A stretch of 64,000 nt of DNA from an uncultured Gammaproteobacteria bacterium (GCA_963763115.1 CAVXNM010000026.1:7055-71054); one strand, 5' to 3'. Positions 1,054-51,562 are shown, counted from the first letter of the stretch. Made by a program: numbers and translations. Notes: generated by a model from the letters alone, not told the origin.

Positions 1054-1130
1054 GCGCCCGTAGTTCAGTTGGATAGCGTACTGCCCCCATAATGCTGGGG
1101 TCGGTGGTTCAAGTCCACCCGTAGCCACCA
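1054..1130 (+). pseudogene. chimeric/degenerate tRNA-like gene: Arg-like 5' half joined in the anticodon loop to a tRNA-Met(CAU) 3' half
   Basis: 77 nt with exact tRNA geometry. The 3' part TGCTG-GGGTC-GGTGG-TTCAAGT-CCACC-CGTAGCC-A-CCA has the elongator tRNA-Met layout. The 5' part GCGCCCG-TA-GTTCAGTTGGATA resembles tRNA-Arg. Acceptor strands pair at only 3 of 7 positions, and the anticodon stem CTGCC/TGCTG does not pair. Confidence 0.55.
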
Positions 1131-1222
1131 TTCAAATTCAAGGTCCTGTGGAACCGGCTCCGCACCCGTCTTTGCACTGGAAATGCGCGGTAAGTGCGGA
1201 GGGTGGTAGAAAGGGGGTATAG
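1088..1222 (+). repeat. tRNA-Met 3'-half module, copy 1 (tRNA half + decayed terminator + GCGCGGTAAGTGCGGAGGGTGG box)
   Basis: CATAATGCTGGGGTCGGTGGTTCAAGTCCACCCGTAGCCACCA followed by conserved downstream sequence. The same module recurs at 6824, 25221 and 51446, with a partial copy at 40332. Confidence 0.8.
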
Positions 1223-1378
1223 AGGATGTAATAGGTGAAGCAGGAGGAATGTATACATCTTGTTGTTCATGTCATTCGCAGCATAAATCAGCCATTTACC
1301 TACTCAGCAGGAAAACCGGGCCAGAGAACGTATATCTCGCCTGTTGGCGCAAATTGTTCCCTGACCCGGGATTTTTCA

Positions 1379-1687
1379 TTACCAAAAGTGCCACCAAGAG
1401 TTATTGTTGTTGTGATGGTGCTGTTTTTTCTGAGTGCATGTTCCGCATGGTTGCTGTTGGGGATAATAATGTGGGTAATAACCTGTGTGATAACCCCGGT
1501 TATAATGCCGGTGATCCGGTGCATGATTACCGTGATATCCCTCATAGTGACCATTCCATCCATGGCTGCCCTGGTGTCCGTCATTATCATAGCGTCCCTC
1601 ATCAGCCCAGGCGTCGCTGCATGGCACCCAGAGGATCATGGCCATGACCGAAGCCAGTATGTGTGAGGATTTGATATGCCTGTACAT
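1379..1687 (-). CDS. secreted His/Tyr/Gly-rich small protein (hypothetical)
   Basis: Signal-peptide-like N-terminus MYRHIKSSHILASVMAMILWVPCSDAWA. GGAGAG Shine-Dalgarno about 6 nt before the ATG. The mature part has roughly 13 His and 9 Tyr in 74 aa. Confidence 0.5.
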   Translation of the reverse strand: MYRHIKSSHILASVMAMILWVPCSDAWADEGRYDNDGHQGSHGWNGHYEGYHGNHAPDHRHYNRGYHTGYYPHYYPQQQPCGTCTQKKQHHHNNNNSWWHFW

Positions 1688-2004
1688 AAATTTCTCTCCT
1701 TCATTATCGGGTTACATGGATTATTAACGTGATAGCCCCGAAAAGGGTGACAGGCTGCGTGCACATGACGATATATAGGCCGGGCTCTGCTGGGGATGTA
1801 AGCCGGTAGTGCATGCACAGGCCTGGCCTGCAGGCTGCTGATAGTGGCTATAATGACAATGCGGATGGGGTACCCTGTCAGCAGGATAAACGCAATTTCT
1901 TCGACGACCGGCATACGCGCAGTGCCAGCACTGCCGTTGGAGTGCTGGAACCAAGCCATTATCCGGCGCACAGGCCAGCCGCTTAACCAACGGGACTGAT
2001 ATGC

Positions 2005-2646
2005 ATGGCCGGTTTTAGTTCGCACTACTCACTGCTACCGCCGGTGGTCAAGGCATTGCTGATCGCCAATGGCCTGATGTTTGTTCTCGAACTGTCCTAT
2101 GGCGAGTCATTGATTGCCAGTCTGGCGCTATGGCCGCTCAATCAGCCGGGCAGTCTCCCGGGTGAATCCATAGCGGCGCATTTCCAGCTGCAGCAGCTGG
2201 TGACCTACAGTTTCCTGCACGGTAGTGTGATGCACCTGTTCCTGAACATGTATGCCTTGTGGCTGTTCGGGGCGCGCATGGAGAATGTGTGGGGCTCCAC
2301 CACGTTTGCCGTTTATTATTTCGTGTGTGTGCTCGGTGCCGGACTGGTGCAGCTGCTGGTGTCCACGCTCAGTGGCGGCTATTACCCGACCGTCGGTGCC
2401 TCCGGTGGTGTCTTCGGTCTGCTGCTCGCGTTTGGCATGCGGTTTCCGAATGAAATACTGCTGCTGATTTTTCCGCCGGTGGCATTGCCCGCCAAGTGGT
2501 TCGTAACGATTTATGCCGCCATCGAGTTGTTGGCTGGCGTGACCGGTACTGCGGCGGGGGTGGCGCATTTTGCCCATCTGGGCGGTATGTTGTTCGGTTA
2601 TCTGCTGATCCGCTACTGGCACAGGTATCCGCCACGATTCCGCTGA
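2005..2646 (+). CDS. rhomboid family intramembrane serine protease
   Basis: 213 aa, multi-TM. Motifs FLHGSVMHLFLNM, GASGGVFG (catalytic Ser) and FAHLGGMLFG (catalytic His). Confidence 0.85.
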   Translation: MAGFSSHYSLLPPVVKALLIANGLMFVLELSYGESLIASLALWPLNQPGSLPGESIAAHFQLQQLVTYSFLHGSVMHLFLNMYALWLFGARMENVWGSTTFAVYYFVCVLGAGLVQLLVSTLSGGYYPTVGASGGVFGLLLAFGMRFPNEILLLIFPPVALPAKWFVTIYAAIELLAGVTGTAAGVAHFAHLGGMLFGYLLIRYWHRYPPRFR

Positions 2647-2741
2647 CAGGGTTTGTGTATCGCCTGCAATACCGGATCATATCGGAGGTATTCCGGTAGA
2701 CGAGCGGGGCGTAAATTTACCGGCCGCTCTGCTGTCCTGAT

Positions 2742-3148
2742 AACTGTGCAGAACGCCATCGTCATCAGGAGTGGCTAACGTTTCTGAAGATGATCAACAA
2801 GCAAACTCCTGCGGACAAAGAGATACGTATTATTTGTGACAACTACGCAACACACAAACACCCGAAAGTGCGTAGCTGGCTGAGATATCACAATCGCTTT
2901 CATAATCACTTCACTCCGACCAGCGCTTCGTGGTTAAACATGGTCGGACGATTTTTTCGAGAACTCACAGATAAACAGCTGCACCGCGGTGTTTCAAGTG
3001 TGTTCCGGAGTTGGAACACGCTGTCCTGCAGTTCATCGACGTTCACAACAAGGCGCCTGCTCCTCTTATCTGGACCAAATCAGCCAGCGACATTCTCGAG
3101 AAAGTTAAGCGCGGCAGGGAAAAAGTCAATAAGTTACAGTCTGTATGA
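2742..3148 (+). pseudogene. IS630-family transposase, C-terminal fragment with frameshift
   Basis: RHRHQEWLTFL...IRIICDNYATHKHPKVRSWL...HFTPTSASWLNMV.RFFRELT. The tail ...FIDVHNKAPAPLIWTKSASDILEKVKRGR continues in another frame (shift near 2990). The N-terminal two thirds are absent. Confidence 0.7.
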
Positions 3149-3548
3149 CGGGGTACCCTAGTTCAGATTGCGTATACAATGTAATAGAAGCTTTTGATTG
3201 CTTTTCATCTGGACCATAGATATTTTTTGTGGCTGTGCTAATCACTTACACGAGATTCATACTTAACAGACTGAATTGTAGAGGCCATTGTTGGGTCGAT
3301 TGTTGTAGATCTATAATCCATCCCCAAATGGCTAATTTCAGTACATTTGAGACCAGCATTGGATTGTGTAGGATGTCTCGTATAGGGCCGGTTCCGGACC
3401 TTAAGCATTGTCTTACACAGCTATCAGACCTGCCCTACAGACTCCCATCACCCACCGCGCCGAACTCACGGCATGGGCATGTCCCGAATGTCAGTCTCCG
3501 CTTTTGTTTTGCATGACCCATGGAATACCAGCTTAAGATATTAGTGCG

Positions 3549-3989: not shown

Positions 3990-4088
3990 GTCATCTCTCC
4001 TCTACATTCTGTCGCACCGGCAAGAAATTTGCCCCTTCCGCGAACAGAAATTGCCACAGGAATTATCAGCCTCTCTCATTCCCATTTA

Positions 4089-4301: not shown

Positions 4302-4468
4302 AAAGAATTCCTCCTTCTCGTTCGAATAGCAGAAGAATTAGTGCGGATCATCAAAATCCTACTCAAAAATATAACTATAGCTCAACTGGATAGCAGCCCC
4401 ACCCAGATGTTTCCAAAGGCTTTTATGCAATTAATTGCATCAAGGGTAAGTTGACCTTGTTCGTCCCA

Positions 4469-4711
4469 GGTTTGGGTCCTGGCGGCCAGAATATCCTATA
4501 TTAATCATTACCTAATGGCATTGAGACCAGGGGATCGCAGTCCCTTGGTGTTAGCCATAGGAGGGCATCGGCAGATACCATGCGTTTCCCTGTATGGGCT
4601 CAGTTGGTCGTCAGATTTCATTGAGTCCACGTTAGGCTTTGCTCATGGTTGTGGTTGATTACTCGAACAGAGGGGCCGTATCAAGGTTCGAGTCCTAGTG
4701 GGTCCATCACC
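4469..4711 (+). repeat. tRNA T-arm-like module A: degenerate T-arm fragment (4469-4490), conserved hairpin (4515-4558), TAGGCTTTGC box, second T-arm/acceptor-like fragment (4682-4711)
   Basis: GGTTTGGGTCCTGGCGGCCAGA and CAAGGTTCGAGTCCTAGTGGGTCCATCACC bracket a unit homologous to 5726-5948 and 6596-6691. Confidence 0.7.
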
Positions 4712-5725: not shown

Positions 5726-5948
5726 GGGCGGTACGATTCAGTTGTCCGATCTGGTATCCCACTATTTGAGTTCGAGTCCTGGCGGGCCCACCACTTCCCA
5801 TAGAAATCATTAGCTTATGGCGCCGAGACCAAGGGATCGGAGTCCCCTGGTGTGATCCATAAAGGGATGTCCAGCGCCGAGCTCGGGCAGTCGATCTGCC
5901 ATCAGACACACAATTCCATCCATGCTAGGCTTTGCCCATGATTGTGGG
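5726..5948 (+). repeat. tRNA T-arm-like module B: decayed tRNA-like stretch ending GAGTTCGAGTCCTGGCGGGCCCACCA (5768-5793), conserved hairpin (5815-5862), TAGGCTTTGC box
   Basis: Alignable by eye to modules A and C. Only this copy keeps a CCA end. The upstream GGGCGGT...GATTCAGTTG looks like a decayed acceptor/D-arm. Confidence 0.7.
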
Positions 5949-6595: not shown

Positions 6596-6691
6596 GGTAG
6601 TTCGAGTCTTGGCGGGCCTACTATCTATCATGCAAATCATAGCGTTATGGCATTGAGGACAGGGGATCGGAGTCCCTTGGTGCAATCCATA
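6596..6691 (+). repeat. tRNA T-arm-like module C: GGTAGTTCGAGTCTTGGCGGGCCTACTA + conserved hairpin (6645-6691)
   Basis: Starts 17 nt after the stop of the lipoprotein gene. Homologous to modules A and B. Confidence 0.7.
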
Positions 6692-6823
6692 GCGGGCTGG
6701 CCGGCTCGGGGCTTCGGGTGAGGGGCGCGGGGGGCACTCTCCTAGTAATCATTGGCCTTTCACCATCGTGTAATTTTTCACCGTTGAGCTTCCGATAGAC
6801 GAACGTGGATATGTAATTTTGCC

Positions 6824-6950
6824 CTCATAATGCTGGGGTCGGTGGTTCAAGTCCACCCGTAGCCACCATTTATTATCAGTTACTTATCAAGCCGGCCCTG
6901 TGCCGTTTTTTTGTTGAAAGTGCGGGGTAAGTGCGGAGGGTGGAGGAGGT
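6824..6950 (+). repeat. tRNA-Met 3'-half module, copy 2
   Basis: Identity starts in the anticodon loop (CTCATAA) and runs through CCA (6868), a short terminator hairpin + T7, and GTGCGGGGTAAGTGCGGAGGGTGG. Confidence 0.85.
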
Positions 6951-7007: not shown

Positions 7008-7765
7008 ATGCTCAAACAGCTTCGCCTGTCAGGGCTACTCGATAGCCTCGACGCACGTAATCGGGAGGCGATCGAGAAACACCTCACCTACCCAGAGTTT
7101 CTCGCTCTGGTCATTCAAGACGAAGCCGGGCGCCGTGAACAGAAGAAGTACGGTATGCGTCTGCGTCGTTCCGGTTTCCGCGGCGACAAGCTACTGGAAG
7201 GCTTCGACTTCGACTTTAATCCGGGCATCAACCAGCAACTCATCAACGAGCTCGCTCAGTGCCGGTTCATCGAAGAGAAAGTCTCCGTTCTGATCGCGCT
7301 GGCCCCTGTGGTACTGGCAAGAGCCATATCGCACAAGCCATTGGCCACTGCGCGGTTCGACTGGGCTACGATGTGATGTTCACCTCGCAGTCCAGCCTGC
7401 TCTCGCAGATCAATGCCGCTCGTGCTACTGGGGCCATCGAGCGCAAAATGCAGACACTGATCCGCATCCCGCTGATCATTATCGACGACTTCGGTCTCAA
7501 GCCGCTCAAGCCCGGTCAAGACGAAGACTTCCACGATCTCGTCGCCGAACGCTACGAGCGCACCGCGACCGTCATCACCAGCAATCTCGACTTCACTGAA
7601 TGGGGTGAGGCGTTCCCGAACAAACTACTCGGCGCCTCGACGCTCGATCGGCTTCGTCATGCGGCTTACCGACTGGTACTCGACGGAAAAAGCTATCGCA
7701 CGCCGCGTGGTGAAGCTGAAGCTGATAAATCAGTGGTTGCAAAGGCACCCAAAACCGCGAAATAA
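7008..7765 (+). pseudogene. istB: IS21-family helper ATPase IstB, frameshifted; no IstA present
   Basis: MLKQLRLSGLLDSL... continues after a frameshift near 7305-7312 with Walker A GPCGTGKSHIAQAIG and LIIIDDFG. Confidence 0.8.
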
Positions 7766-8406: not shown

Positions 8407-9478
8407 GAATTCAATTTGTAAGTGCAACTCTACATGACGGTAAGAGGGCAAGCTGCGTTAGCATTGTGGCTTATCTCACCGCCAAGCAAGAGGAGCACAC
8501 ATGAGAGGCTATACGCAGCTTACCCAAGAGGAACGATACCAAATTTACATCCTGAAGAAAGCAGAATACAGCCAGGCAGAGATTGCCGAGCTGCTGGATC
8601 GGGATAAATCGACCATCAGCCGGGAGCTGCGCCGAAATCGGGGCCTGAAGGGCTACCGGCCCCGGCAGGCCCATCATCTGGCGCTGCGGCGGCGTCACGA
8701 CAAGGCTCAGCCCCGGATAGGTGACAAGGTCTGGCAACTTGTCGAGACACTGATCCGAGAGGAGTGGAGTCCGGAGCAGGTTGTCGGCCGGGTCGAGATG
8801 GAACACGGGGTATCTATCAGCCATGAATGGATCTACCAGTACGTTTACGCAGACCAGCGCTCAGGAGGTGAGCTGTACCGTTTCCTGCGCTGTCAGAAGG
8901 TCCGGCGCAAACGCTATGGTGCCTATAGCCGACGCGGCTGCATTCCCAACCAGATCTCGATCGATGAACGCCCGGCCATTGTCGATAGCCGGCAGCGCTT
9001 CGGCGACTGGGAGGGTGATACCGTGATCGGTAAGGGTCATCGGGGCGCCCTGGTCACGTTGGTTGAGCGCAAGTCGCTGTATACGGTCATCCGGGCCGTC
9101 CTCAATAAGACGGCAGAGGCTGTCCGAGACGCTGTTGTGGACGGGCTTACCCCGTACATCGACTGGGTGCATACCATCACCTATGACAATGGCCGGGAAT
9201 TCACCGACCACGAAGGCATGGCCAGCGACCTTGATGCACGCATCTATTTCGCTCATCCTTATGCCTCCTGGGAGCGTGGACTGAACGAGAACACCAACGG
9301 ACTCATCCGACAGTACTTCCCGAAACACCGGGATCTGACGACTGTTACCAAGCATGAGATTGAAAAGGCCATGGATAAACTCAACCACCGTCCCAGAAAA
9401 TCGCTGGGCTTCCGGACACCTTTTGAAGTCTTCTTCAATACCAGGACTTCGCTAACCGTTGCACTTCAAAGTTGAATC
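8407..9478 (+). mobile_element. IS30-family insertion sequence, apparently intact
   Basis: Imperfect terminal inverted repeats GAATTCAATTTGTAAGTGCAAC (8407-8428) and GTTGCACTTCAAAGTTGAATC (9458-9478) flank a single 324-aa transposase ORF. Confidence 0.85.
8501..9475 (+). CDS. IS30-family transposase
   Basis: N-terminal HTH LTQEERYQIYILKK...STISRELRRN. DDE-type core with DWEGDTV and ITYDNGREF. Confidence 0.9.
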   Translation: MRGYTQLTQEERYQIYILKKAEYSQAEIAELLDRDKSTISRELRRNRGLKGYRPRQAHHLALRRRHDKAQPRIGDKVWQLVETLIREEWSPEQVVGRVEMEHGVSISHEWIYQYVYADQRSGGELYRFLRCQKVRRKRYGAYSRRGCIPNQISIDERPAIVDSRQRFGDWEGDTVIGKGHRGALVTLVERKSLYTVIRAVLNKTAEAVRDAVVDGLTPYIDWVHTITYDNGREFTDHEGMASDLDARIYFAHPYASWERGLNENTNGLIRQYFPKHRDLTTVTKHEIEKAMDKLNHRPRKSLGFRTPFEVFFNTRTSLTVALQS

Positions 9479-15325: not shown

Positions 15326-15386
15326 AAAAGGGTTCGGAGCACATTTACTGCTAATATCAGGGATAAATGTGCTCCGACACCCTTTT
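15326..15386. terminator. long bidirectional terminator hairpin between the convergent ART and P450 genes
   Basis: AAAAGGGT-TCGGAGCACATTTA-(16-nt loop)-TAAATGTGCTCCGA-c-ACCCTTTT: about 22 bp of pairing with an A-run and T-run on the flanks. Confidence 0.7.
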
Positions 15387-16627
15387 CACACGTGCAGGCG
15401 TACCGGCAGGCTCCGCAGTCCGCGCATCACCAGCCCGGGTGTCCATCGCAGCCGTTCGACCGGCTGGTCGAGGCGCAGCTCTGGAAACCGCCTTGACAGC
15501 TCGACGAGGGCAATCTCGCCCTCGGCCCGCGCCAGCGCGGCTCCCACGCAAAAGTGTATCCCGTAGCCAAATGCCAGGTGATTTGCTGATCTGCCGCGCG
15601 TGATGTCGAATATGTGCGCGTCTTCGAAGTAACGCGGATCGCGGTTGGCAGCCGCCAGCCCGACGAAGACCATGTCGCCCTCGTGGATACAATTGTCATC
15701 GAACGTGATATCCGCCGTTGCGTAGCGTGCCGTGGACACCTCGAGCGGACTCTCGAATCGCAGTATTTCCTCGACCGCCGCCGCCGCACGTCCTGCATCG
15801 GCACAGAGTGCCTGCCATTGCGCAGGGTTTCTGAGCAATGCCAGCAGCCCGTTGCCAATGAGATTTGCAGTCGTTTCATGTCCGGCCATGATCAGCAGGA
15901 ACGCCATGGAAACCAGCTCTTCTTCAGAGAGTTCCTTGCGACCGTGCGCGGCCACTAATGCACTGAACAGCGAATCGTCGGGGCTTGAGCGTTTCATGTC
16001 GGCGACCCCCAGCAGGTATTCGTGCAGTTCCCCGGCGATCAGCGGTACACGCTCCGCGGCGCCGAGGTCGGCAGATGCCAGTCGTGCCGACCAGTGCTGT
16101 ACACGTGGTACGTCCGCCGCGGTAATGCCCATCAGCTCGCAAATTACCATGAGGGGAAGCGGGAGGGCGAAGGTCTGCACGAGGTCCGTTGTGCCGCTGG
16201 AGGCGAAAGCATCGATCAGTTGCACGGTAGTCTCCCGGATTCGAGGGCGCATGCGGTTGATGCGGGTCGAGGTGAGTTCCCTTGCAATGATTGCGCGCAG
16301 ACGGGTGTGTTCCGGAGGGTCTATCGTGAGCAGGTGGTGAAACAGCGGGTGCACGGTTCCCTGTTGACTGCAGGCATCCGGATCCTGCCTGCTGGCATGG
16401 CTCTTCGCGCGGTCCTTGGACAGGCGCGGGTCATTCAGCAATGCACGTGCCGGGGAGCAATCTGTTACCAGCCAGGTTTGCACACCGGTCGGCAAGCGCA
16501 CCGGAATGATCGAGCGGCCCTGTTTGCGCAAACTGTCGTAGAGCGGGTAAGGGTTTGCCTTGAACGCCTGGTCCATGATCGGAAGATCGATGTGTTCCGG
16601 ACAATTTGTCAGGTCAGAGGGTTCCAT
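15386..16627 (-). CDS. cytochrome P450
   Basis: 413 aa. Heme-binding loop FGYGIHFCVGAALARAE, EILRFESP (ExxR) and the I-helix LLIMAGHETTANLI. Confidence 0.9.
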   Translation of the reverse strand: MEPSDLTNCPEHIDLPIMDQAFKANPYPLYDSLRKQGRSIIPVRLPTGVQTWLVTDCSPARALLNDPRLSKDRAKSHASRQDPDACSQQGTVHPLFHHLLTIDPPEHTRLRAIIARELTSTRINRMRPRIRETTVQLIDAFASSGTTDLVQTFALPLPLMVICELMGITAADVPRVQHWSARLASADLGAAERVPLIAGELHEYLLGVADMKRSSPDDSLFSALVAAHGRKELSEEELVSMAFLLIMAGHETTANLIGNGLLALLRNPAQWQALCADAGRAAAAVEEILRFESPLEVSTARYATADITFDDNCIHEGDMVFVGLAAANRDPRYFEDAHIFDITRGRSANHLAFGYGIHFCVGAALARAEGEIALVELSRRFPELRLDQPVERLRWTPGLVMRGLRSLPVRLHV

Positions 16628-16812
16628 GTAGAGTCAATCAGCAATATCAGTCAATCGGTTGTCAAGTAAACCCGGACAGGGCAGGACGGGATGATGAAAA
16701 CAGCATACAGCCAGTGTTGCGGGCATGCCAGCGATTGCCGGCTGCCCTTGACCCTCCGCTTTCACCTGTCGCGCGGCGCGGTCGATACCTTCCAGATTGC
16801 GGGTATCACTGC

Positions 16813-17883
16813 ATGAACCTTTCCCGCAGCGGACCGGAATTTCCCGAGTGCACGGGGCTATGGCAGACGCCGGAATGGTTCCCGATGAACCTCTTGCCCC
16901 GAGAAAACAAAATGGTACTCGTGCCCGTATCGGAACTGCTCTACCGGGAGGTCAATTTCCTGGACGACAGGGAATTACCGGTGGACGGTCTCATCGAGCT
17001 GCCACTGGACCGGGTAATCCGAATGTCGGCACGAATCCGCGCGCCACACACACCGGTACACTGCATCTATCACATTGCGTTCTGTGGATCGACGCTCATC
17101 GCGCGCTGCCTTGATCAGCTTACGGGAACGCTGGTTCTCAAGGAGCCGCTGTCCTTTCACGAGATGGCCTGCCAGAAGCGCCTTGCAGCTTCTTCTGCAC
17201 AGGAATGTGCGCTATGGCGCAGGTCATTCGACCTGCTCATGACGCTGCTGGGTCGTACTTTCCGTACCGACCAGGCCGTGATCGTCAAGCCGACGGATGC
17301 TTCAACCAACCTGATCGGAGACGTGCTGGCGCGTAACGAGGAGTCACGGGCCATTTTCCTTTATGTCGGACTCGAAGAGTTCCTCATCGCGATGCTGCCT
17401 GATGAAACCAGGATGGGGTTCGTGATAGACCGGCTTGCGGAGCTGGGTGTACATTTCCCCGGCAAGCCGCTGTTCAGCGAGCAGGGTTGGCGCAAGCTGA
17501 CGTCGCCGGAGCAGGCTGCATGTCTGTGGTTTCTGCACATGTCGCTGTATGCCAGCATCATGGCAATGAACCCCGAAGCCGGGTGTCGGGCCCTCGACCT
17601 CAACCGGTTTCTTCAGGAGCCTGAACATACCCTCGTCTCGTTGGCCAGGTTCTTTGAGATCCCCGTAACGTTGCAACAGGCCAGGCATGCCATCACTGCA
17701 AGCCTGGGTCTGCATTCCAAGGATCAGAAGCTTGCCTACTCGGCCCGACAACGAGCCAGCAGCCAACGCGAGATTGCGCGCAGATATCGCAGCGAGATCC
17801 GCCTGGGTCAGCGCTGGGCCGCACGCCGGCTCGAGCAGGAGGGCCTGCCGGAGACCCCGCCACTGCCACTGGGAGTCATTTGA
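16813..17883 (+). CDS. hypothetical protein, possibly sulfotransferase-like
   Basis: 356 aa from ATG 16813, divergent from the P450 across 185 bp. HIAFCGSTLIARCLDQLTG resembles the PAPS 5'-phosphosulfate loop (xxSGSTLL) of Stf0-type sulfotransferases. The functional call is weak. Confidence 0.5.
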   Translation: MNLSRSGPEFPECTGLWQTPEWFPMNLLPRENKMVLVPVSELLYREVNFLDDRELPVDGLIELPLDRVIRMSARIRAPHTPVHCIYHIAFCGSTLIARCLDQLTGTLVLKEPLSFHEMACQKRLAASSAQECALWRRSFDLLMTLLGRTFRTDQAVIVKPTDASTNLIGDVLARNEESRAIFLYVGLEEFLIAMLPDETRMGFVIDRLAELGVHFPGKPLFSEQGWRKLTSPEQAACLWFLHMSLYASIMAMNPEAGCRALDLNRFLQEPEHTLVSLARFFEIPVTLQQARHAITASLGLHSKDQKLAYSARQRASSQREIARRYRSEIRLGQRWAARRLEQEGLPETPPLPLGVI

Positions 17884-18256
17884 CAAGCATCTGGTTTCAC
17901 GCTAAATAACTGCAGAATTATCAGTATGTTGGCTAATTAATCGAGGCGGTGCGCTGTTTTCGTGTAGTCCTGACTCTGCCGGGTGGGCTACCGGGGCCGT
18001 ACGTCGGCATTGACTATGTCTGGAAGCATTCCGTTAACCGTACGCACCGTGCATCGATACGCGGTTGATCTCGTCCTGGCGGCTGTGATAAATAACTATT
18101 GCATGGCGTGATAATACGGCTAGCTTCTTATCGGGATACCGGATTATTACTACAAGGCAAGTATCGGGGGGCTCGTACACGTCCGGTAACATGCTTCCGC
18201 CATGTACGGCAGTGTTACGCAGGTTTGTTACACAGATCAAAGAGGAGATTTGAAAA

Positions 18257-18481
18257 ATGCAAACAGCACATGATCTGGTACGTTTAAAGGTTGATGCATT
18301 GCGTTCGGCGATGGCTGCAAGGGAAGTCAACCAGGGGCAGGCAATCAAGGCGCTGGCTGATATCGCCGCATGCGAATCACCTGTGGATCGTTCAATCAGT
18401 AATCCTGACATGCATCGCGGTGACGCGTTGCATATGTGCCCATGGCATACCTGTCAAGCAACTCGTCACATCAATTCCTGA
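18257..18481 (+). CDS. candidate lanthipeptide precursor peptide (LanA)
   Basis: 74 aa. GAGGAG Shine-Dalgarno 8-9 nt before the ATG. Lies directly upstream of the synthetase. The C-terminal part AACESPVDRSISNPDMHRGDALHMCPWHTCQATRHINS has 3 Cys and 6 Ser/Thr. Confidence 0.6.
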   Translation: MQTAHDLVRLKVDALRSAMAAREVNQGQAIKALADIAACESPVDRSISNPDMHRGDALHMCPWHTCQATRHINS

Positions 18482-18522
18482 TAGTTCCCATACCCGCGAA
18501 TTGTGTGTAACGGCGTTTTGAA

Positions 18523-18550
18523 CGCGGCAGAGGCTTACTCTGCCGCGTTT
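18523..18550 (+). promoter_or_regulatory. intercistronic attenuator/terminator hairpin between precursor and synthetase
   Basis: CGCGGCAGAG-gctta-CTCTGCCGCG: a perfect 10-bp stem with a 5-nt loop, followed by TTT. Confidence 0.6.
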
Positions 18551-18556
18551 ACATGT

Positions 18557-21115: not shown

Positions 21116-21196
21116 GGTTACGGCTATCCATCTGCAACAATGACGGGTCGGGCAACGGGCAGTCAGCGCTGGCATAACGAGGCAACCAGCTGAAGG

Positions 21197-22099: not shown

Positions 22100-22117
22100 G
22101 GTCGCGTCAGTCAATCC

Positions 22118-24841: not shown

Positions 24842-25069
24842 ATGCGCGAGTTCGATGCGCTGTGCCTGCCGCCGGTGAAGACCTACACGCCTACGCAGAT
24901 CAAGCGTCTGCGCACACGCTATAAGGCCAGCCAGGCCGTGTTTGCGGCCTATCTGAACACCAGCCCCTCGACTGTGCAGAAGTGGGAGCAGTGTCAGAAG
25001 AAACGAAATGGGCCTTCCCTGAGGTTGTTGAAACTGGTGGATGCGCACGGGCTGGAAGCGCTTGCCTGA
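24842..25069 (+). CDS. XRE-family HTH protein, COG2944/YiaG-type antitoxin-like; no partner toxin gene
   Basis: 75 aa. TPTQIKRLRTRYKASQAVFAAYLNTSPSTVQKWEQ...PSLRLLKLV matches the pattern of these antitoxin-type regulators. Confidence 0.6.
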   Translation: MREFDALCLPPVKTYTPTQIKRLRTRYKASQAVFAAYLNTSPSTVQKWEQCQKKRNGPSLRLLKLVDAHGLEALA

Positions 25070-25220
25070 GCAGTTGGAAGAAGGCGTTAATCCGCAAGTA
25101 ATCGCTTCGGGACTTTTACGGGATACGGATGTGCACGGTTATGCACTGTTGTGCAGTCGAGGCAACGGATGCCCCATTTAATCGCATTTAAAAACAACAA
25201 GATACAAGCCAACAATGCCA

Positions 25221-25265
25221 CTCATAATGCTGGGGTCGGTGGTTCAAGTCCACCCGTAGCCACCA
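25221..25265 (+). repeat. tRNA-Met 3'-half module, copy 3 (downstream part only weakly conserved)
   Basis: CTCATAATGCTGGGGTCGGTGGTTCAAGTCCACCCGTAGCCACCA, identical to the other copies from the anticodon loop to CCA. Confidence 0.85.
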
Positions 25266-26286
25266 TTAAAATAAATGCTTACAGAATTTCCCGCTCTTTG
25301 ATTTTTCTCCTGTAGTGCAAAAGTAGTGCGCAGTGCGTGAAATGGGTGCTTTCATTCGCCTGCTTTAAGTCTTTCCTACAGCACCCACCAGCGGTGTCCT
25401 ACTGCCGTGCCAGATGCGGCCGGTTAGGCTATGCCGTGCCGTAGTAATGCGTAGGTTGAGTTGGTTAGGTATTGCGGTCCTATAGCACAAATCGGCAGCT
25501 GCGGCCTTCGTGCCGCCGTTTTATTTTACAGATATAAATGCAACTACCACTGGGGCGAGTCTGGCATGGCGGGTGATGGGTGTCTGTCAGGCGGGTCTGA
25601 TAGTGCTACCAATGAAAACCTCAGGCACATGGCCGTAACCAGGTTGTCTTCTGCAAGCAATCTTTGCGGAAATACTATTCAAACGTCGTTCCGACTGGTA
25701 ACGGCGGTCAAAGAGTACTAATTGACCGTTAGACTCCTTCAAAGGGACATGTGCAGGCGTACCGCTCCTGCGATCAGTGATCTGTCGGCTGTCGTGTCCC
25801 ATGAAGTACAGAAACATTACATGCCCCCATTCGTTAGCCATTGTGCCACGAGCATTACGATAAGCCATTAACCACACGCGGTGAATTGTCCTGATGTACA
25901 ACCGTTGCTGATTCGGCAATAAATGACACACCAAGGTGGGCGGGGTCTGGTGTTGGGCGTCTGTCAGACAAGTCTGATTTCGATATCAGAATGGCTAAAG
26001 GAAAAGAATCGACCATTTCTGCCTTCGCATCCCGCGCCTGGATGCCTACGACGTTAGCCGTCTTGTTGGTTTGTATCACCCAACAACAACGCCAGTTGTG
26101 TTGGACCTCGCCCATCATTAAGCAGATATAACCCGACTGCGATACTCGGAGTAGCTAAGCGTAGAAAAGAAAGGCGCCGGAAATTCTGATAGTTAAGTAA
26201 CATGCCACGTTATTGGCACGGCGGTTGCTGTATGTGCAGCACGGTCCGCAAGGGCCAAAGGTCCAATTCATTTCAGGAGACGAACC

Positions 26287-29597: not shown

Positions 29598-29926
29598 TTC
29601 AGGTGATGATTTCTCGGTGAGCAAACCCCGCGGACAACCTGGCAGATAGTTACCAATAAACAAGTACCACAATGTCATCCGAGTCTGGCAGAACAAATCA
29701 TGTCAAGAGGAAGCTGCAGTCATGAAATATATCATAACCAAGGTTGAGAAGAGGCGGCAGCAAAATCTGTTTCTGCAAATGTGGCGTTTCGTTGTTTTGT
29801 CGATCAAATTCATGAAATTAACCCGAATAAACTATTCTAGACCTCATTCAGTTAAAAATCCTTCAGACCCAAAATCAGCATGAATGCGTGAACGGGGACA
29901 GACCATGATTTTACTCCCACCGACCC

Positions 29927-38359: not shown

Positions 38360-38829
38360 GGATATGGAACAATCGGCACGTCCCAGGGAGGACACAAAAC
38401 CCCGTAGGGACTGTCCCTAAAGAGTGTAGCTGGACGGAAGTCAATTCGTTGGGGGCGGCGATACCTCATCTGACCTACCCACGATCCGGGGCATTGGATG
38501 AGTATCAGCCGTGAGACAACATGATGGCAGGGGCGTAATGCCCCCATACGGTAAACCCCTTGACTTTTTGCTCCTTCAAACCGCGTATAAACATCCACTT
38601 ACAAATGGCGTGAATACTATACTGTATACACCCGTATGCATATATGCCACGGCGGATGCGCATCGACCGCGAAAAGATCCTGGACGAGCCGGAATGCTCC
38701 ATTCGTTGTGGTGTACCGCTGTGGTCCGCAAATATTCATGCCGCCTTCGGCAGCATGCTGTATTCATGATGTAATCCACCCAGGACAGGGTGAGTTATAA
38801 CCTTATGATGGTACGGGATTCGATGTCGA

Positions 38830-39053
38830 TGTACTTGTGGCGAGACAGGGAGGTCGGATGGTGTACCCGGTATGCCTGGGCCGATACTGGAGTGTCAGGC
38901 CGGTGATGCTTGACCTTGCGTTCCTGGAACATAGCCAAATTGTTTGCGCAGGAAGAGATTCTCGGCAGCGAGTATGCCCTGTGGGCGTAGGACAAGCCAG
39001 AGGAACGTGGCCAAATCGCCAAGCAGCGTGATTATCATTTTGAAGCCTTCCAT
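38830..39053 (-). pseudogene. rve-family transposase, N-terminal fragment, frameshifted
   Basis: MEGFKMIITLLGDLATFLWLVLRPQGILAAENLFLRKQ then LAMFQERKVKHHRP in another frame. The putative outer end at about 39113-39146 is repeated at 54291-54325. Confidence 0.5.
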
Positions 39054-39162
39054 GACGGGCAGTATCTTGCCATATCATGAAGGGCAGTGCGATTCAAAGG
39101 TAACTGCATCCTTAAGAATCAACGGGATTCGATTATTGAGGAACACAGGGTGGATCTACTGA

Positions 39163-39599: not shown

Positions 39600-40262
39600 T
39601 CAGTCCAATTCGACTACTTTGGCTTCAGTGGCAAACACGACCTGTTCAGCAATATTGGTTAAATGGTCTCCGTAGCGTTCGAGAAGATGCGATATCCAAA
39701 GCATTCGAGAAGCATCAGGGACAAGATCCGGTCTGGACTGCATTTTTGAAAAAAGCATTTGAATCAGCTTCGCCTGTTCAGCATCGATATCATCATCCAT
39801 CTTTGCAGCCATTTTCGCTCTCTCTGTATCTTTATCTCGGTATGCAACCAGAGTGGCCTGCATCATTTTGTTGCACAAGGAAGACATCTTTAACAAATCT
39901 GTGATTCCCACTTCTGACAGGTCAATATCAGTCATCTGTAAAGAGATGGAAGCAATGTCAGATGCGTAGTCACCAATTCGTTCCAGATCACCGGCAATCC
40001 GTGTGGCGGCGACTACATCCTGTAGATCATCGGCAACCAACTGATGAAGTGCAATTGCTGTCAGGCATTCCCTTTCAACAAGGTACCTGCCGCGGTTAAT
40101 CTCTGCATCATGTTCAATGATGGGCTGACATAATGCTTTATTCTCACCAGTGAGGCAGGACATTGCCTGACCCATCGCATCTGCTACCGCAGTAAACAGA
40201 TCAAGAAGGTTTTTTTTGATTTGCTTTTTTTTAACTACCAGAGCATGGCGGGACTCAGGCAT
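39600..40262 (-). CDS. PhoU-family protein
   Basis: Two PhoU repeats with the signatures DLERIGDYASDIA and LLERYGDHLTNIAEQVVF. No pst genes are adjacent. Confidence 0.85.
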   Translation of the reverse strand: MPESRHALVVKKKQIKKNLLDLFTAVADAMGQAMSCLTGENKALCQPIIEHDAEINRGRYLVERECLTAIALHQLVADDLQDVVAATRIAGDLERIGDYASDIASISLQMTDIDLSEVGITDLLKMSSLCNKMMQATLVAYRDKDTERAKMAAKMDDDIDAEQAKLIQMLFSKMQSRPDLVPDASRMLWISHLLERYGDHLTNIAEQVVFATEAKVVELD

Positions 40263-40331
40263 ATAATGTGTCTCCTGTGAATCGATGTTGGTAGAAAGCA
40301 CATTTTACTCGATTCATGGAAAAATAAATCT

Positions 40332-40400
40332 ATTCAGTGACTTATGCAACTGGCCCTGTGCCGGTTTTTTGTTGTAATTGCTGTGTAAATACGGAAGGTA
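40332..40400 (+). repeat. partial copy of the tRNA-Met module (terminator and downstream box only, no tRNA part)
   Basis: ATTCAGTGACTTATGCAACTGGCCCTGTGCCGGTTTTTTGTTG closely matches the segment after CCA in copy 4 (51487-51535). Confidence 0.6.
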
Positions 40401-40655
40401 TCAATAAAAACCCTGACCAGTTCGGTATAGTTGATGTCATCAAGATAACTGTTCCTTGGTCATCAAATTCAACATCTTTATTGTCATTTTGACATATGTT
40501 GCTAGAACAACACTACGCCATACCCGGTATAAACTGCATCAAATTTATCGCCCTTGGTAATCTCCGATAGGGCAGCGGATTCTAACAGTCAATTCTGGAG
40601 ACCAGTGATGAGATAAACGCCCGTTTGCCGTCAGATTCGTTAGCTTCCAACAAAA

Positions 40656-41285
40656 TCAGAATGGGGCAAAATTATTTAATGTCGCAAACGGCTTGCCAAA
40701 ATTGATCCGACCACCTGAGACGATACCGGAAGTGTCACCCGTCACGAATCCTGCCGCGCTGAGACCCACTAATCTTGAAACACAGTAGGTTTCGTCTTCC
40801 GGAGCGGCGTCGGCAGGGATTAGCTTGTCCTTGATCTTTCTGATTTTCAATCGCGCCGTAATATAACCTGAACCGAACAGTGCTCCGGTATCAAGTAGTG
40901 CGATTATGTTATCGCTGTTCTTTCTCTTGTCGACCACAGTATCCACGGCAATCAAGCTAATCATGGAACTTCCCGCCACGATAGCGCCGCTTTTCTTGTC
41001 CCAAACAACAAGAAAAATGGAACCCGGATTGTTGCAATCGGAGATCGCTGCAACGATGTCATTCGTGCCGGGTCTGCCATCACTTAGCTCCGCGAGGATA
41101 TCCTCCTTCTTGATGGTTTCCGTGCTAATGTCATTTAAGCCGCTCTGGAAATGGATATACAGATTTATGTTACTGACCCGATGGACTGTAAAGAAAGAAA
41201 AAGACGGCACACTCCACAGTAGGCTCAATAACAGAACCGAGATTTTGCACAAACAGATCGTGTTTACGCTACCGAAGTTGTACAT
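40656..41285 (-). CDS. hypothetical secreted protein
   Basis: GAGGA Shine-Dalgarno before MYNFGSVNTICLCKISVLLLSLLWSVPSFSF (signal-like). AT-richer segment. No recognisable domain. Confidence 0.5.
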   Translation of the reverse strand: MYNFGSVNTICLCKISVLLLSLLWSVPSFSFFTVHRVSNINLYIHFQSGLNDISTETIKKEDILAELSDGRPGTNDIVAAISDCNNPGSIFLVVWDKKSGAIVAGSSMISLIAVDTVVDKRKNSDNIIALLDTGALFGSGYITARLKIRKIKDKLIPADAAPEDETYCVSRLVGLSAAGFVTGDTSGIVSGGRINFGKPFATLNNFAPF

Positions 41286-41544
41286 GATTTTGTCCTCAAC
41301 GAATGTCACGCCCAGTCAATATTTATCACCTGTTCACCCACTAAGCTCGGTTGATGAGCAATTACGTGTGAAACTGTGTAACCATAGGAAAAGAGTGAAC
41401 TTGCTATCACGGAAAGGAATCCTCCCCTTGCAACATAGTAAGTCTTACACATTACTGCTCAATGTAAAGCATGTCATATGTTGCATGGCTATGTTGCGAA
41501 TCAGCTTATCCACCGTTTTGATCTATTGGCGATGGCTTGGTGGC

Positions 41545-41845
41545 TGTGTATGGCGAATTGATATTCAGGCAGCAACAGGTAGCAGATATAACCCACGACA
41601 ATGAGAATTCCAGTGGAAATTGTTGAGAGTCAGGAAGTCGGTGTGAGATTCACCTGTTATTTCGGACGGAGTGCCGTCATCAATCGCTGTATGTGTGCGG
41701 TGCGAATTGTGCTACTGGCGGAAATCAGCCAGCTTTCGCTCCAGGTCACTGACATTCCAGAACAACACCTGGTCAAGAAATTCTCGACGAATGGTTCCAA
41801 TCAGCCGTTCGACGAAGGGATGCGATAGTGGCGTATACTTTCGGT
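41545..41845 (-). pseudogene. IS481-like transposase, 3' fragment (same family as 29927-31126)
   Basis: End sequence TGTGTATGGCGAATTGATATTCAGGCAGCAAC and YTPLSHPFVERLIGTIRREFLDQVLFWNVSDLERKLADFRQ. Confidence 0.7.
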
Positions 41846-46799: not shown

Positions 46800-47010
46800 G
46801 CAGCCATTGTTAAGGGTTGTAAGATGCCTGCCCCCGGCCGCCGACGTTGTCGGGGCACGCAACGCTCAACGGGCAGGCAATCACAATCCCTGTCTGGACA
46901 AACACCAGAGCATACCGCCACTTCGACGTGTGACGTGCAATCCAGAACCAGAGCACACGGTCTCCGGGATTAATTCTTGGGTGCTGGGCAGTTCGCTGAT
47001 ACACACTGAG
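46800..47010 (-). pseudogene. IS481-like transposase fragment (family of 26591-27206)
   Basis: YQRTAQHPRINPGDRVLWFWIARHTSKWRYALVFVQTGIVI parallels the 26.8-kb copy. Confidence 0.5.
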
Positions 47011-47102
47011 CTGGTGTCTCTATGCCACGATCTCGAGTTTCAACGAGAGCCGCACTCGAAACAGGGTGGACACAAATGCGAACTGCGCACAGGCAATGGG
47101 CT

Positions 47103-47460
47103 TTATAGTACTGGATCCACTTCGGCAGCAACAATAACAGAGAATTTTAAGCTGACGCTGCTTTTGAATAAGATCAAGGATATCAGGCAGCACGAATTAT
47201 CGGGAAGGACAACCGAAATCTTGGGTGCGCGTCGCCGTGAACGATGAAGAATCAGGAGTTGCTGCTTCATGAGCAGGCTGTCAGCGACAACGGCCCGCGC
47301 ACCGCCAGGCTCCAGGAGTTTGGCAACCGTAGTAAATGGATGCGCGAGGATTACCAGCAGATCCTTCATGGCAGAGCAGGGCAGGGAAGGTTGCGTGCTA
47401 GAACAAGACTGTCTAACCTACTGTTTTCAGGTAATAATTAACCATTCGCCTGGTACAGTG
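47103..47460 (-). pseudogene. IS481-like transposase, 5' fragment (family of 29927-31126)
   Basis: MKDLLVILAHPFTTVAKLLEPGGARAVVADSLLMKQQLLILHRSRRRAP, with an outer end ...ATTCGCCTGGTACAGTG. Confidence 0.65.
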
Positions 47461-47503
47461 TGAGGTTTATATTGCGCTTACCGAAAGCAGAGGGCAGCAT
47501 GGC

Positions 47504-49220: not shown

Positions 49221-49693
49221 ACGAAGGGCTGCCTGACTCCGGCTTGGAGCGGACGGCGCGGGTTTCATTTACGAGGCGCCGCCGCTCAAGCCGCTGTTAC
49301 GAAGGACCGGAGTTGCTGCATTCGAGGTGGCGCGATCAGTCTTCGATCTGGGTGCTCCGGCCGTCGAACGCGGGACGTTCTTCCAGGGACGCGGGATTAG
49401 CGCGGACAGCTATCGAACCACAGGCGGGCCGCCGTTGGCCTGAGGTCTGGGTGCGTCGGATTTGGTTTGTAGCACTCAGGGCCAGTGGCCGGTGGAGGCA
49501 CTCCAGAGAGGGAGGATGTAGACCGTAGTCCTCGGTCCTCAGTGCCAGGACGCAGGATAACCGTGTGCGAATGGAAACCAGCCTCACCACCCTGGAGCGC
49601 TTTGTACCTGGCTAGAGGGCGATCCACTTATGCCGCCAAACCATTGATACGCTGGGCCAGCAACCCTTGCATTCCTACAGCGCGCGATGCGGG

Positions 49694-50962
49694 TTAGTCA
49701 GACCGCAAATCTTGCAGCCTGTTGCGGAGCATCCCGATGTGCAGCCGCAGGTTGTAGAGCTCGTCGCTGTAGGACAGGGGGACCCTGACTTTCCGGACAT
49801 CCTCTTCGATAGTATCCAGCCGCTGCAGCAGTTCCGCTAGCTGCGCAGCAGTGGCCTCTTCCGGATGCCGGATGTCGATTGCGTGGAGTTGGTGGTACCA
49901 GCGGTAGATCTTCCTGCGCACCTGCCAGCGATAGGTGGGCGGCATGATCTTGATCAGCGGCACCAGAATGGTCAGCAGCGGCACCAGCATGATCTTCATT
50001 CGATCGACCAGGTTGGCCGTCCAGAAGGGCAGGTAGCGCTGCAACAGGGGTGGCCCGTGCCGGTAGAAGCGGCGCGCGTCCTCGTCCAGCGGGAAATCCA
50101 CATGCTTTGCGTTCGGAAACTCGCCCGGTTTCTCGAACAGGCCGCCACCGCCGTGCACCCTGGTGGCGGCCTGCAACAGCAGGCTGACCAGTGCCGGATG
50201 AAAGTCATCGCGGGCTATCAAATTGGCCGCGGATGCCAGCAGGGTGACATCCTGTGGTGGTATGTTTGCCTGCAGGTCGATGACGCCTTCGGGCAGGGTA
50301 ATGGCGGCGAGTGCATGATTTCGGTCGGTATATGCCGCGGCGCGGGTAAATGACATCAGGCGGATCGTTTTATCGTGCAGCAGTTCCTGAATCAGCGGCG
50401 AACGGGGCGAGGCGACGAAAAAGGCGGCATCCGCAGCGTCCTGTCGTAGTGCCTGGGCGGCCGCTTTGTCGCCCAGTACCTGGAGGTTGCCTGCAGGGCT
50501 ATCGATGCGGTTATCTGCCAGCAGGGCAAGTGCCAGGGCGCGGGTTCCGCTGCCCGTCGCGCCCGTTGCCAGGCGCCTGCCCTGAAAATCTGTCAGTCTG
50601 CGCGCCTGTTCCGGGTGACGGTAGAACACCCATAGCGGCTCGTAGTACAGGCTTCCCAGGGCGGTGATATCGCCGTCAGCGGCACTGATGCCCGAGCCTC
50701 CCTGGAAAAAGGCAAGGTCGACTTCACCGGCCTCCAGCAACTGGAGGTTTTCCAGGCTACCGGCTGTCCTGCGGATCTCCAGGGTTATCGCATCTTCCGC
50801 CAGTATCTCCCGGTAGCGTTCGGCAAACAGGTAATAGGCACCGTCTGCCTGACCGCTCGCAATGGTGATCGTGTGTGATGGCGCCGGATTGACGAACTGC
50901 CAGGCGACGAGGAAACCGATGAGGGTGATGGCAATGGCCGGGCCGAATGTTTTCAGGCGCAT
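49694..50962 (-). CDS. TAXI-family TRAP-type solute-binding protein with a C-terminal TM helix and coiled-coil tail; no permease gene adjacent
   Basis: GGAGG Shine-Dalgarno before MRLKTFGPAIAITLIGF. ITIASGQADGAYYLFAERY...LENLQLLEAGEVDLAFFQGG is typical TAXI. The C-terminus has MKIMLVPLLTILVPLIKIM plus a charged helical tail. Confidence 0.7.
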   Translation of the reverse strand: MRLKTFGPAIAITLIGFLVAWQFVNPAPSHTITIASGQADGAYYLFAERYREILAEDAITLEIRRTAGSLENLQLLEAGEVDLAFFQGGSGISAADGDITALGSLYYEPLWVFYRHPEQARRLTDFQGRRLATGATGSGTRALALALLADNRIDSPAGNLQVLGDKAAAQALRQDAADAAFFVASPRSPLIQELLHDKTIRLMSFTRAAAYTDRNHALAAITLPEGVIDLQANIPPQDVTLLASAANLIARDDFHPALVSLLLQAATRVHGGGGLFEKPGEFPNAKHVDFPLDEDARRFYRHGPPLLQRYLPFWTANLVDRMKIMLVPLLTILVPLIKIMPPTYRWQVRRKIYRWYHQLHAIDIRHPEEATAAQLAELLQRLDTIEEDVRKVRVPLSYSDELYNLRLHIGMLRNRLQDLRSD

Positions 50963-51159
50963 ATCGTTAGTATCCTCCGTTTGTCCGCTTCCGGCAGGGG
51001 ACGCGCTGCCACGTTGTGTCCTGTGCTTCGAGCGCAGGTCGCTGCTCGTTTTTGCCGATATGTCGAGTGACTGTGATCGAGTGCAGGAATATCCTGATTG
51101 TAGCGGGGAAAAGAACCAGTGGCCCGGCAGTCTCGGTAAAACGGCTTTCACTCACGCCG

Positions 51160-51330
51160 AACGACAACATCCGCTACGACGTGAACCCCCGCAGGACGGG
51201 ATCATCTCGCCTGTGCTCGCAAACCTCTATCTGCATCACTGCAGGACCTGTGGTTCGAACGCGTGGTCAGGCCGCAGTGCCGGGGCGAGGAGTGTGATTC
51301 TGCGATCTGATGGTGAAGTGAAGGGGTTGC
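51160..51330 (+). pseudogene. reverse transcriptase remnant (group II intron/retron-type, motifs 4-5 only), frameshifted
   Basis: PQDGIISPVLANLYLHH, then in another frame LQDLWFERVVRPQCRGE, then a decayed YADDF-like LRSDGEV. Confidence 0.6.
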
Positions 51331-51445
51331 GTGAATTTGTCGGGAATTAGCTGTGCACCGTAGTGCACAGGTATACAAAGTCCCGCAACGGACGTCCTGG
51401 ATAGGATAATTATAACAATAACTTACGATATTATGGCGGACTCCC

Positions 51446-51562
51446 TAATGCTGGGGTCGGTGGTTCAAGTCCACCCGTAGCCACCATTCATATTCAGCGA
51501 CTTATGTAACCGGTCCTGTGCCGGTTTTTTCGTTGGAAGTGTGGGGTAAGTATGAAGGGTCT
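51446..51562 (+). repeat. tRNA-Met 3'-half module, copy 4
   Basis: TAATGCTGGGG...CGTAGCCACCA, terminator AACCGGTCCTGTGCCGGTTTTTT, then GTGTGGGGTAAGTATGAAGGGT. Confidence 0.85.

Follow-up and report, generated by a model that had tools for sequence, protein, structure and literature searches.

How did four 3' halves of a tRNA-Met gene, all in the same orientation and each broken off in the anticodon loop, come to be spread over a single locus of a gammaproteobacterial genome? The question is raised by a stretch of 64,000 nucleotides from an uncultured Gammaproteobacteria bacterium (GCA_963763115.1, CAVXNM010000026.1:7055-71054), from now on referred to as the window. A preliminary description, made from the sequence of the window alone, had proposed that the halves mark the borders of serially integrated elements. 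Our analysis leads to a related answer, namely that the window represents a decayed tandem array of integrative elements which entered at tRNA-Met-type attachment sites, a reading to which we assign a probability of about 70%. The array is read as decayed because the window is without an integrase but contains many insertion sequence (IS) remnants. Genome stretches and metagenome contigs compared with the window are labeled with L-numbers (L007, L096 etc.).

tRNA-Met 3' halves in the window and in related genomes

The 38-mer TGCTGGGGTCGGTGGTTCAAGTCCACCCGTAGCCACCA occurs exactly four times in the window, always without mismatch and only on the + strand (1093-1130, 6831-6868, 25228-25265 and 51449-51486), and has no match in shuffled sequence. 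This bears out the proposal of four + strand tRNA-Met 3' halves, and the starts given for them (1088, 6824, 25221 and 51446) are indeed those of the shared sequence, from which identity reaches leftward into the anticodon loop to varying depth. The halves are referred to as copy 1 (1088..1130), copy 2 (6824..6868), copy 3 (25221..25265) and copy 4 (51446..51486). The loop is complete (CTCATAA) in copies 2 and 3 and reads CCCATAA in copy 1, where identity starts at CATAA (1088); in the loop of copy 4, identity is limited to TAA, starting at 51446. A 45-nt string said to be common to all four copies is thus exact in copies 2 and 3, but its loop portion differs in copies 1 and 4. Boundaries are sharp at the anticodon loop: for copies 2, 3 and 4, the preceding 32 nt lack any similarity to the tRNA-Met 5' half. 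Neither ARAGORN (0 genes) nor Rfam at its gathering score detected a tRNA in the 64-kb window. With the Rfam tRNA model, copy 1 reaches 17.9 bits where the cut-off is 29, and its minimum free energy fold is not a cloverleaf. It had been correctly stated that no copy is a functional tRNA and that none has a matching 5' half; the tRNA-like 5' half found next to copy 1 belongs to a different, Arg-like tRNA.

Scanning one genome per species for the 38-mer identified 79 stretches, nearly all from uncultured or marine Gammaproteobacteria. In about 60 of the 79, the 38-mer forms the 3' half of a 77-nt tRNA-Met(CAU) that is intact and mostly located 3' of a conserved three-gene cluster encoding proteins of ~210-230, 192-196 and 363 aa, which we read as rplY-pth-ychF based on these sizes and, without Pfam, on the YchF-like sequence in L122. 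These data support the assignment of the repeats to the 3' half of an elongator-type tRNA-Met, which many related genomes keep intact. In a further 14 stretches, the 3' half is only a fragment and the sequence flanking it on the 5' side is unrelated, as is the case in the window. Several fragments per contig can be found both in genomes (L029/L052/L065, L015/L020, L028/L038 and L023/L045) and in metagenome contigs (L087/L089, L101, L115, L118 and L122), with arrays of 0.4-2 kb spacing being frequent (L087/L089, L101, L115 and L118).

Element-side arms and integrases

Directly upstream of copies 3 and 4, sequences are found that contain phased repeats of two types, CGGGAC (twice) and TRTGCAS (three times), and that are referred to as element-side (P) arms. 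The P arm of copy 3 (25097..25220, + strand) consists of CGGGACTTTTACGGGA, which contains phased direct repeats with an 11-nt period, followed by TGTGCAC, TATGCAC and TGTGCAG at a 10-nt period and then by AACAACAAGATAC. The P arm of copy 4 (51330..51445, + strand) is diverged and, aligned and read against the copy-3 arm, shows TCGGGAAT.., TGTGCAC, TAGTGCAC, GCAACGGACG and AACAATAACTTAC. An element-specific arm was not seen for copies 1 and 2. In L023, L052, L038, L071, L020, L007, L065, L029 and L056, the same tRNA fragment is preceded by a sequence with 81-89% identity to the copy-3 arm, and metagenome contigs L109, L120, L080 and L116 match this arm at 80-90%. Altogether, the arm is found again ahead of the fragment, at 81-90% identity, in 10 or more other genomes and contigs. 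The pattern of its phased repeats is that of candidate arm-type protein-binding sites. CGGGAC repeats are found again in the downstream flank of integrase loci and, by translation, lie within the last codons of the integrase in L023. Upstream of the P arm in L023, L038, L007, L065, L056 and L071, the elements end with a conserved small minus-strand open reading frame (ORF) (MHSIKISSKVDEATWNELKELAAE...) that looks like it may encode a ribbon-helix-helix antitoxin. At the corresponding place upstream of the copy-3 P arm, the window instead contains an HTH_3 ORF (24842-25069).

Two relatives, L013 and L023, encode a PF00589 tyrosine recombinase that is convergent with the tRNA and ends about 25 nt after the CCA. 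At the equivalent position, L064, L054, L057 and L038 retain only C-terminal integrase remnants of 60-99 aa, which makes decay of the integrase a common event in this group. Large ORFs beside the tRNA copies of relatives, as read from their translations, are mostly transposases or housekeeping genes, integrases being confined to L013 and L023. When the L013 and L023 integrases were used as tblastn queries, nothing below E=0.9 was returned for the window and nothing for the metagenome loci. No match in the plasmid collection was obtained by megablast with positions 1-25000.

Conjugation, phage, Tns and Cas domains are likewise absent from the scanned ORFs of the window. This bears on the idea that the tRNA halves are homing sites or guides of a tRNA-targeting Tn7-like or CRISPR-associated transposon, in favor of which only the general fact that such elements home to tRNA genes could be cited. 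Given the lack of Tns and Cas domains, the lack of transposon-end repeats and the position of the repeat boundary in the anticodon loop, we give this idea next to no credence.

A downstream module containing a terminator and a conserved box

Copies 1, 2 and 4 are each followed by a module of about 70 nt (1135..1205, 6875..6941 and 51492..51561, respectively, all on the + strand). A fifth module without a tRNA part, referred to as copy 5, is located at 40332..40400 (+ strand) and starts about 30 nt upstream of a PhoU-like gene (39600-40301, minus strand); it had been described as a partial copy made up of terminator and box, and this is what was found. No further module could be detected in the window with a module hidden Markov model, even at E=10. 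The common layout runs from the CCA end through 5-7 nt, an IHF-like site and the terminator to a pair of GTGCGG repeats spaced by 11 nt, the latter being part of a box with the sequence GTGCGGGGTAAGTGCGG. Conservation over 22 tRNA-linked units is highest in the columns of the hairpin stems, the T-run and GGAAGTGCGGGGTAAGTGC, each at 90% or above. In copy 1, the hairpin has been lost and the box is represented by AAATGCGCGGTAAGTGCGG (1181-1199). Copy 2 combines an exact IHF-consensus match (TATCAGTTACTTA), a 4-bp hairpin and a perfect box. The copy 4 terminator is intact, with a 7-bp stem, -15.8 kcal/mol and a z-score of -2.7. A terminator hairpin had been attributed to copies 1, 2 and 4; among the modules of the window, only those of copies 4 and 5 retain it intact. 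The attribution holds for copy 4, but the hairpin of copy 2 is down to 4 bp and that of copy 1 has disappeared. The IHF-like site of copy 2 fits the pattern WATCARNNNNTTR exactly; with 8 matches to this pattern in the window where 2.6 are expected, a number reached by 2 of 100 shuffles, this constitutes weak evidence.

Copy 3 has a diverged downstream arm (25266..25340, + strand) that the module model does not detect beyond 25272. Read by eye, it contains AAATAAATGCTTAC, no hairpin and a box-like TAGTGCAAAAGTAGTGCGCAGTGCG at ~25313-25337, and AGTGC occurs three times within it. GTGCR repeats with a 10-11 nt period are present on both arms, the P arms carrying a related GTGCA motif. Based on this arrangement, we read the module as a probable P' arm in which the tRNA terminator is embedded, or the fixed remnant of such an arm. 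The shared sequence of about 85 nt downstream of the tRNA halves had been left unexplained in the preliminary description, and either a P' arm with an embedded terminator or the 3' flank of the gene itself could account for it. Two other identities for the box were considered and rejected. Its similarity to the 5' end of a group II intron (GUGYG) ends after about 22 nt, and no reverse transcriptase ORF was found in Pfam scans; a sigma-70 promoter would have no acceptable -10/-35 spacing, and matches in promoter scans are no more numerous than in shuffled sequence. No conserved gene was found 3' of the modules.

Within the window, modules are only 61-77% identical to one another, compared with 100% for the tRNA parts. 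The downstream identity claimed for copies 1, 2 and 4 is thus real as a shared module, but this module is much less conserved than had been implied. Copy 4 with its module is 94% identical to L109 and 92.5% identical to an intact tRNA-Met with module in L118, while copy 2 with its module is about 90% identical to L096 and L125. Separate acquisitions are indicated by the modules of the window being closer to foreign copies (90-94%) than to one another (61-77%), and the comparison argues for units that would be of separate origin and not the product of recent local duplication. That the tRNA part did not change would be due to its function in the donor, as part of either the attP or the gene. 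A recent segmental duplication of one tRNA-Met fragment with its flank, for instance IS-mediated and without any serial integration, would fit the many IS remnants of the window as well as the Arg-like stem strand that precedes the loop in both copies 1 and 2. We consider it very unlikely in view of the divergence of the modules, the greater similarity of copies 2 and 4 to foreign copies and the upstream flanks, which are of different classes, namely an Arg-like 5' half and a P arm.

The association of module and tRNA was further analyzed in a metagenome scan with a pattern consisting of the T-run and box alone and therefore blind to the tRNA. Among 32 module matches, 26 directly follow a tRNA-Met-type 3' end; five of the other six have no preceding tRNA and one follows a tRNA-Val (L092). 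The tRNA-linked matches include intact genes (L112, L118 and L122) and fragments with a P arm (L109, L120, L089/L123, L125, L080, L116 and L102), the remaining class being decayed fragments. Near full-length decayed tRNA-Met units with a module can be found in L096, L101 and L122. This result also speaks against interpreting the module as a dispersed non-autonomous repeat, similar to miniature inverted-repeat transposable elements (MITEs) or repetitive extragenic palindromic (REP) sequences, that carries a tRNA-like piece and spreads by transposition. A few module copies without a tRNA part exist (window 40332, L020:6939, L045:4596, L033:334 and L118/L099) and are what such a repeat would leave. 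However, no terminal inverted repeats or target duplications were seen, the window copies all lie on one strand at one locus without additional copies at E=10, and copy 5 is accounted for by loss of its core relative to L096. Dispersal of a MITE-like module, put forward at the outset as the finding that would overturn the island interpretation, was not borne out, and we regard this alternative as largely refuted, with only a slight probability left to it. In metagenome loci L088, L092 and L105, the box GTGCSGGGTAAGTGC lies 3' of tRNA-Val terminators; L088 and L105 were missed by the module model.

A relative lacking 33 kb between two modules

Metagenome contig L096 contains one tRNA-Met unit, in which the flank found to the left of copy 2 is directly connected with the flank found to the right of copy 5. 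Its upstream flank, comprising a fragment of another tRNA and about 100 nt, is homologous to window positions 5769-5883 and 6599-6713, and its downstream flank is homologous to 40400-40793 (~78%). Relative to L096, the window thus has about 33 kb of extra DNA (6.9-40.3 kb) with a module copy on either side, which includes copy 3 as well as the lanthipeptide genes, and the same comparison shows copy 5 to be a unit that has lost its tRNA core. L096 is a single metagenome contig of ~78-90% identity and covers the composite 6.9-40.3 kb segment alone. It had been suggested to look for relatives in which a segment is absent precisely between two copies. L096 is a candidate for such an absence, for 6.9-40.3 kb and as one distant contig. 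Of the proposal that four segments are remnants of serial elements, the core notion of attachment-site scars is supported by the arms, the integrases of relatives and L096, but an empty-site comparator exists for the composite segment only.

A tRNA-Arg-like 5' half at copy 1 and fragments of a second tRNA(CAU)

The 5' half fused to copy 1 (1054..1087, + strand) makes this copy a chimeric pseudo-tRNA. Positions 1054-1086 match the annotated E. coli tRNA-Arg, which we take to be the CCG isoacceptor, at 28 of 33 positions, a match that takes in the complete acceptor strand as well as the anticodon-stem strand. The 5' half of copy 1 further matches a tRNA-Arg(CCG)-like gene in L033 at 28 of 32 positions, compared with 22/33 (21/32) for tRNA-Met. 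The upstream sequence of copy 2 is weakly Arg-like, its score being reached by 19 of 2000 shuffles; copy 2 is preceded by TTTGCC, of which TGCC is common to the Arg-type anticodon-stem strand of copy 1. The loops of Arg (CTCCGAA) and Met (CTCATAA) agree at five of seven positions, which makes it plausible that the chimera arose by integrase-mediated exchange at a secondary site. In L033, the closest relative, the Arg-like gene adjoins a homologue of the alpha-amylase-family gene that flanks the array in the window (51585..53357, minus strand); in L033, this homologue also lies near a tRNA-Met fragment with a module. At 191-334 (minus strand), L033 carries a terminator and box remnant about 35 nt upstream of the Arg-like gene. 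The 5' acceptor strand of the gene is disrupted, and ARAGORN consequently makes no call. A rearrangement joining L033 to the window around the amylase gene and tRNA-Arg was considered but cannot be reconstructed by any simple inversion or deletion.

Three fragments of another tRNA(CAU), termed tRNA-X, precede copy 2 at 4.7-6.6 kb, within the first of the four proposed segments. A decayed T-arm/acceptor fragment without a module is located at 4686..4709 (+ strand). A 3' end fragment followed by its own module (AAATCAT..CTTATGG, then a hairpin) is found at 5769..5883 (+ strand) and is homologous to L096 7464-7586, and a second fragment with this module lies just upstream of copy 2 at 6599..6713 (+ strand). 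The T-arm and acceptor of tRNA-X read GTTCGAGTCCTGGCGGGCCCACCA and the hairpin of its module CAAGGGA..TCCCTTG. The layout seen after tRNA-Met halves is also found after fragments of this other tRNA(CAU). Fragments of tRNA-X with their module also occur upstream of tRNA-Met units in L096, L101 and L122.

Proposed sequence of events and alternatives

We hypothesize that a tyrosine integrase crossed over in the anticodon loop and that the attP of each element carried a tRNA-Met 3' half, such that each integration would have added one direct copy. Copies 3 and 4 would then be internal attP-like junctions with a P arm, a core (the tRNA half) and a downstream arm, as predicted by accretion. Copy 1, and probably copy 2, would represent attL-type junctions with a tRNA-Arg(CCG)-like 5' half on the chromosomal side, resulting from secondary-site recombination, and copy 5 would be a junction minus its core. 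As a P' arm, the module would restore termination of the regenerated tRNA and at the same time carry arm-type integrase sites. All integrase genes would later have been lost and the elements eroded by IS elements and deletions, the remainder resembling cis-mobilizable elements, one of them with a lanthipeptide cluster. The repeats, the conserved arm, the integrases at the equivalent position in relatives, the L096 contig and the lack of an integrase in the window are observations, whereas we infer how the arm sites function, that the chimera originated at a secondary site and in which order these events took place.

A number of observations weigh against this sequence of events. No PF00589 integrase or recognizable remnant is present in any scanned ORF of the window; the earlier claim that integrases were lost agrees with this absence and with the intact or truncated PF00589 genes at the tRNA end in relatives. 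There is no intact tRNA-Met in the window, which leaves the pair of tRNA gene (tDNA) and fragment incomplete. Scans of viral contigs with the 38-mer, with the T-arm/acceptor 25-mer and with the arm motif returned 0 matches, and there is therefore no evidence for the elements being phages. Some metagenome "islands" are only 0.4-2 kb long or contain core-like genes, such as an LptF/G-like gene in L122 (read without Pfam). The two attL-type chimeric junctions assigned to copies 1 and 2 cannot be explained by simple accretion. No integrase follows the module in about 20 loci examined, the terminator-plus-box arrangement is also found after tRNA-Val and a few protein genes, and an intact tRNA-Met with module adjoins ychF in L122, the same pair being present in L118, L112, L063 and L051.

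The last three of these observations speak for the module being the native 3' flank of the tRNA-Met gene of this lineage, consisting of its own terminator and a lineage-typical post-terminator box. The units of the window would then descend from several ancestral tRNA-Met genes, each split by an island, with the regenerated gene and the integrase being deleted later. The near full-length decayed units with a module and the orthologous flanks common to window units and L096 or L033 are in line with such an origin. On the other hand, the box shows the GTGCR / CGGGR phased-repeat design of element-side arms, whereas attB flanks are normally without arm-type sites, and a different tRNA(CAU) fragment has the same architecture behind it. 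A native flank would still need fragments made by an integrase and is thus a variant of the decayed-array explanation, not its opposite. We consider it possible, if rather doubtful.

Lastly, tRNA-Met 3' half, IHF-like site, terminator and paired GTGCGG repeats may together form an integrase-less attachment cassette that is selectively maintained as a landing pad served in trans, comparable to an integron-like capture platform. Such a cassette would capture and shuffle arbitrary DNA, from the lanthipeptide cluster to even core-like genes, into arrays and could recombine with tRNA Arg-CCG. It would be compatible with the data in that the tRNA halves are perfectly conserved beside modules that have diverged by 23-39%, the box is at least 90% conserved and short-spaced arrays are numerous in metagenomes, but we deem it unlikely.

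Gene content of the window

The G+C content of the window is mosaic, ranging from 0.44 to 0.66 in 1-kb windows. IS remnants include a DDE_3 fragment (2790-3161), an IS30-like ORF (8501-9475) and IS3-like pieces (29844-30938, with partial copies at 41544-41838 and 47213-47389). An IS21 IstB gene (7008..7765, + strand) is frameshifted, with profile positions 3-97 in one frame and 99-232 in another. It lacks an upstream IstA and starts about 70 nt past module 2, which indicates that the IS21 element was cut off near the boundary of this module. Two diverged repeat pairs (29926-30220 / 41544-41838 and 30881-31057 / 47213-47389) overlap IS3-like transposase fragments, and an inverted pair (26653-26957 / 46874-47178) lies in ORFs without a Pfam match; these three pairs are 70-83% identical.

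A Class III/IV-type lanthipeptide synthetase (RamC_N, Pkinase and LANC_like domains) is encoded at 18503-21115. Neighboring genes encode a P450, a PhyH and a TauD dioxygenase (15386-24744), and the segment ends with the copy-3 P arm. At 38718-39142, a sequence of about 425 nt is found, each half of which recurs in metagenome contigs L109 (twice), L116, L080 and L089/L123. The two halves lie 0.5-0.8 kb apart in L109, which suggests that the window copy may be a small mobile element with an internal deletion. An AcrB-type RND transporter is represented by two minus-strand ORFs (58734-59843 and 60032-61813; profile positions 2-580 and 685-1020) separated by a gap of about 190 nt and is probably a pseudogene, with its HlyD-type partner encoded at 61810-62991.

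Significance and comparison with known systems

If read correctly, the window shows that this lineage gained accessory DNA by repeated entry at one locus and that a lanthipeptide cluster resides on a segment bounded by attachment-type junctions. It further supplies a defined attachment-site family with core, arms and a candidate arm-type motif as well as a possible case of cross-tRNA (Arg/Met) recombination. The underlying process is well known, and the locus most likely represents a decayed form of it without a recombinase gene and involves no new principle.

A tDNA accompanied by displaced 3' tDNA fragments is the Islander signature of tRNA-integrating islands (PMC4383910). The window resembles Islander-type arrays of the anticodon-loop crossover class (class A) in its direct fragments extending from the anticodon loop to CCA in one orientation, the mosaic cargo between them, the conserved attP arm and the integrases of relatives at the equivalent position. 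It differs in having no integrase in any segment, no intact tDNA and a left end fused to the 5' half of another tRNA. Lacking both integrase and intact tDNA, every candidate would therefore be rejected by Islander, and the locus exemplifies what integrase-dependent island finders would miss entirely. Fragments of tRNA genes at attR sites can be mis-annotated as tRNAs (PMC9897764). Copy 1 is a chimeric, partial tRNA of the type that could be mistaken in this way; unlike those fragments, its 5' half stems from another isoacceptor family (Arg), and neither ARAGORN nor Rfam calls it.

The proposed arms can be compared with the lambda-type attP, composed of a core, the H' IHF site and P'1-P'3. The window appears similar in that an IHF-consensus-like site lies by the core and is followed by repeats with a 10-11 bp period, with a related motif on the other arm. 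Assigned by sequence pattern, these putative arms differ from lambda in having a 45-nt tRNA half as core and an intrinsic terminator inserted between IHF-like site and repeats.

Cis-mobilizable elements (CIMEs) keep their attachment sites, have lost integration and transfer genes and are stacked by newcomers integrating into a resident attachment site (PMC5704250). The segments at 6.9-25.2 kb, between copies 2 and 3, and at 40.4-51.4 kb, between module 5 and copy 4, are similar to CIMEs and the accretion known from the ICESt1/ICESt3 family and from tandems of CIMEs with IMEs (integrative and mobilizable elements) in that they contain no integrase or conjugation domains. They differ in their tRNA-Met target, their uncultured gammaproteobacterial host and further erosion by IS elements and deletions, including loss of the copy 5 core, and their mobility in cis is putative. 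We file the locus as one that works like a tRNA-integrating island array whose elements have been reduced to CIME-like remnants.

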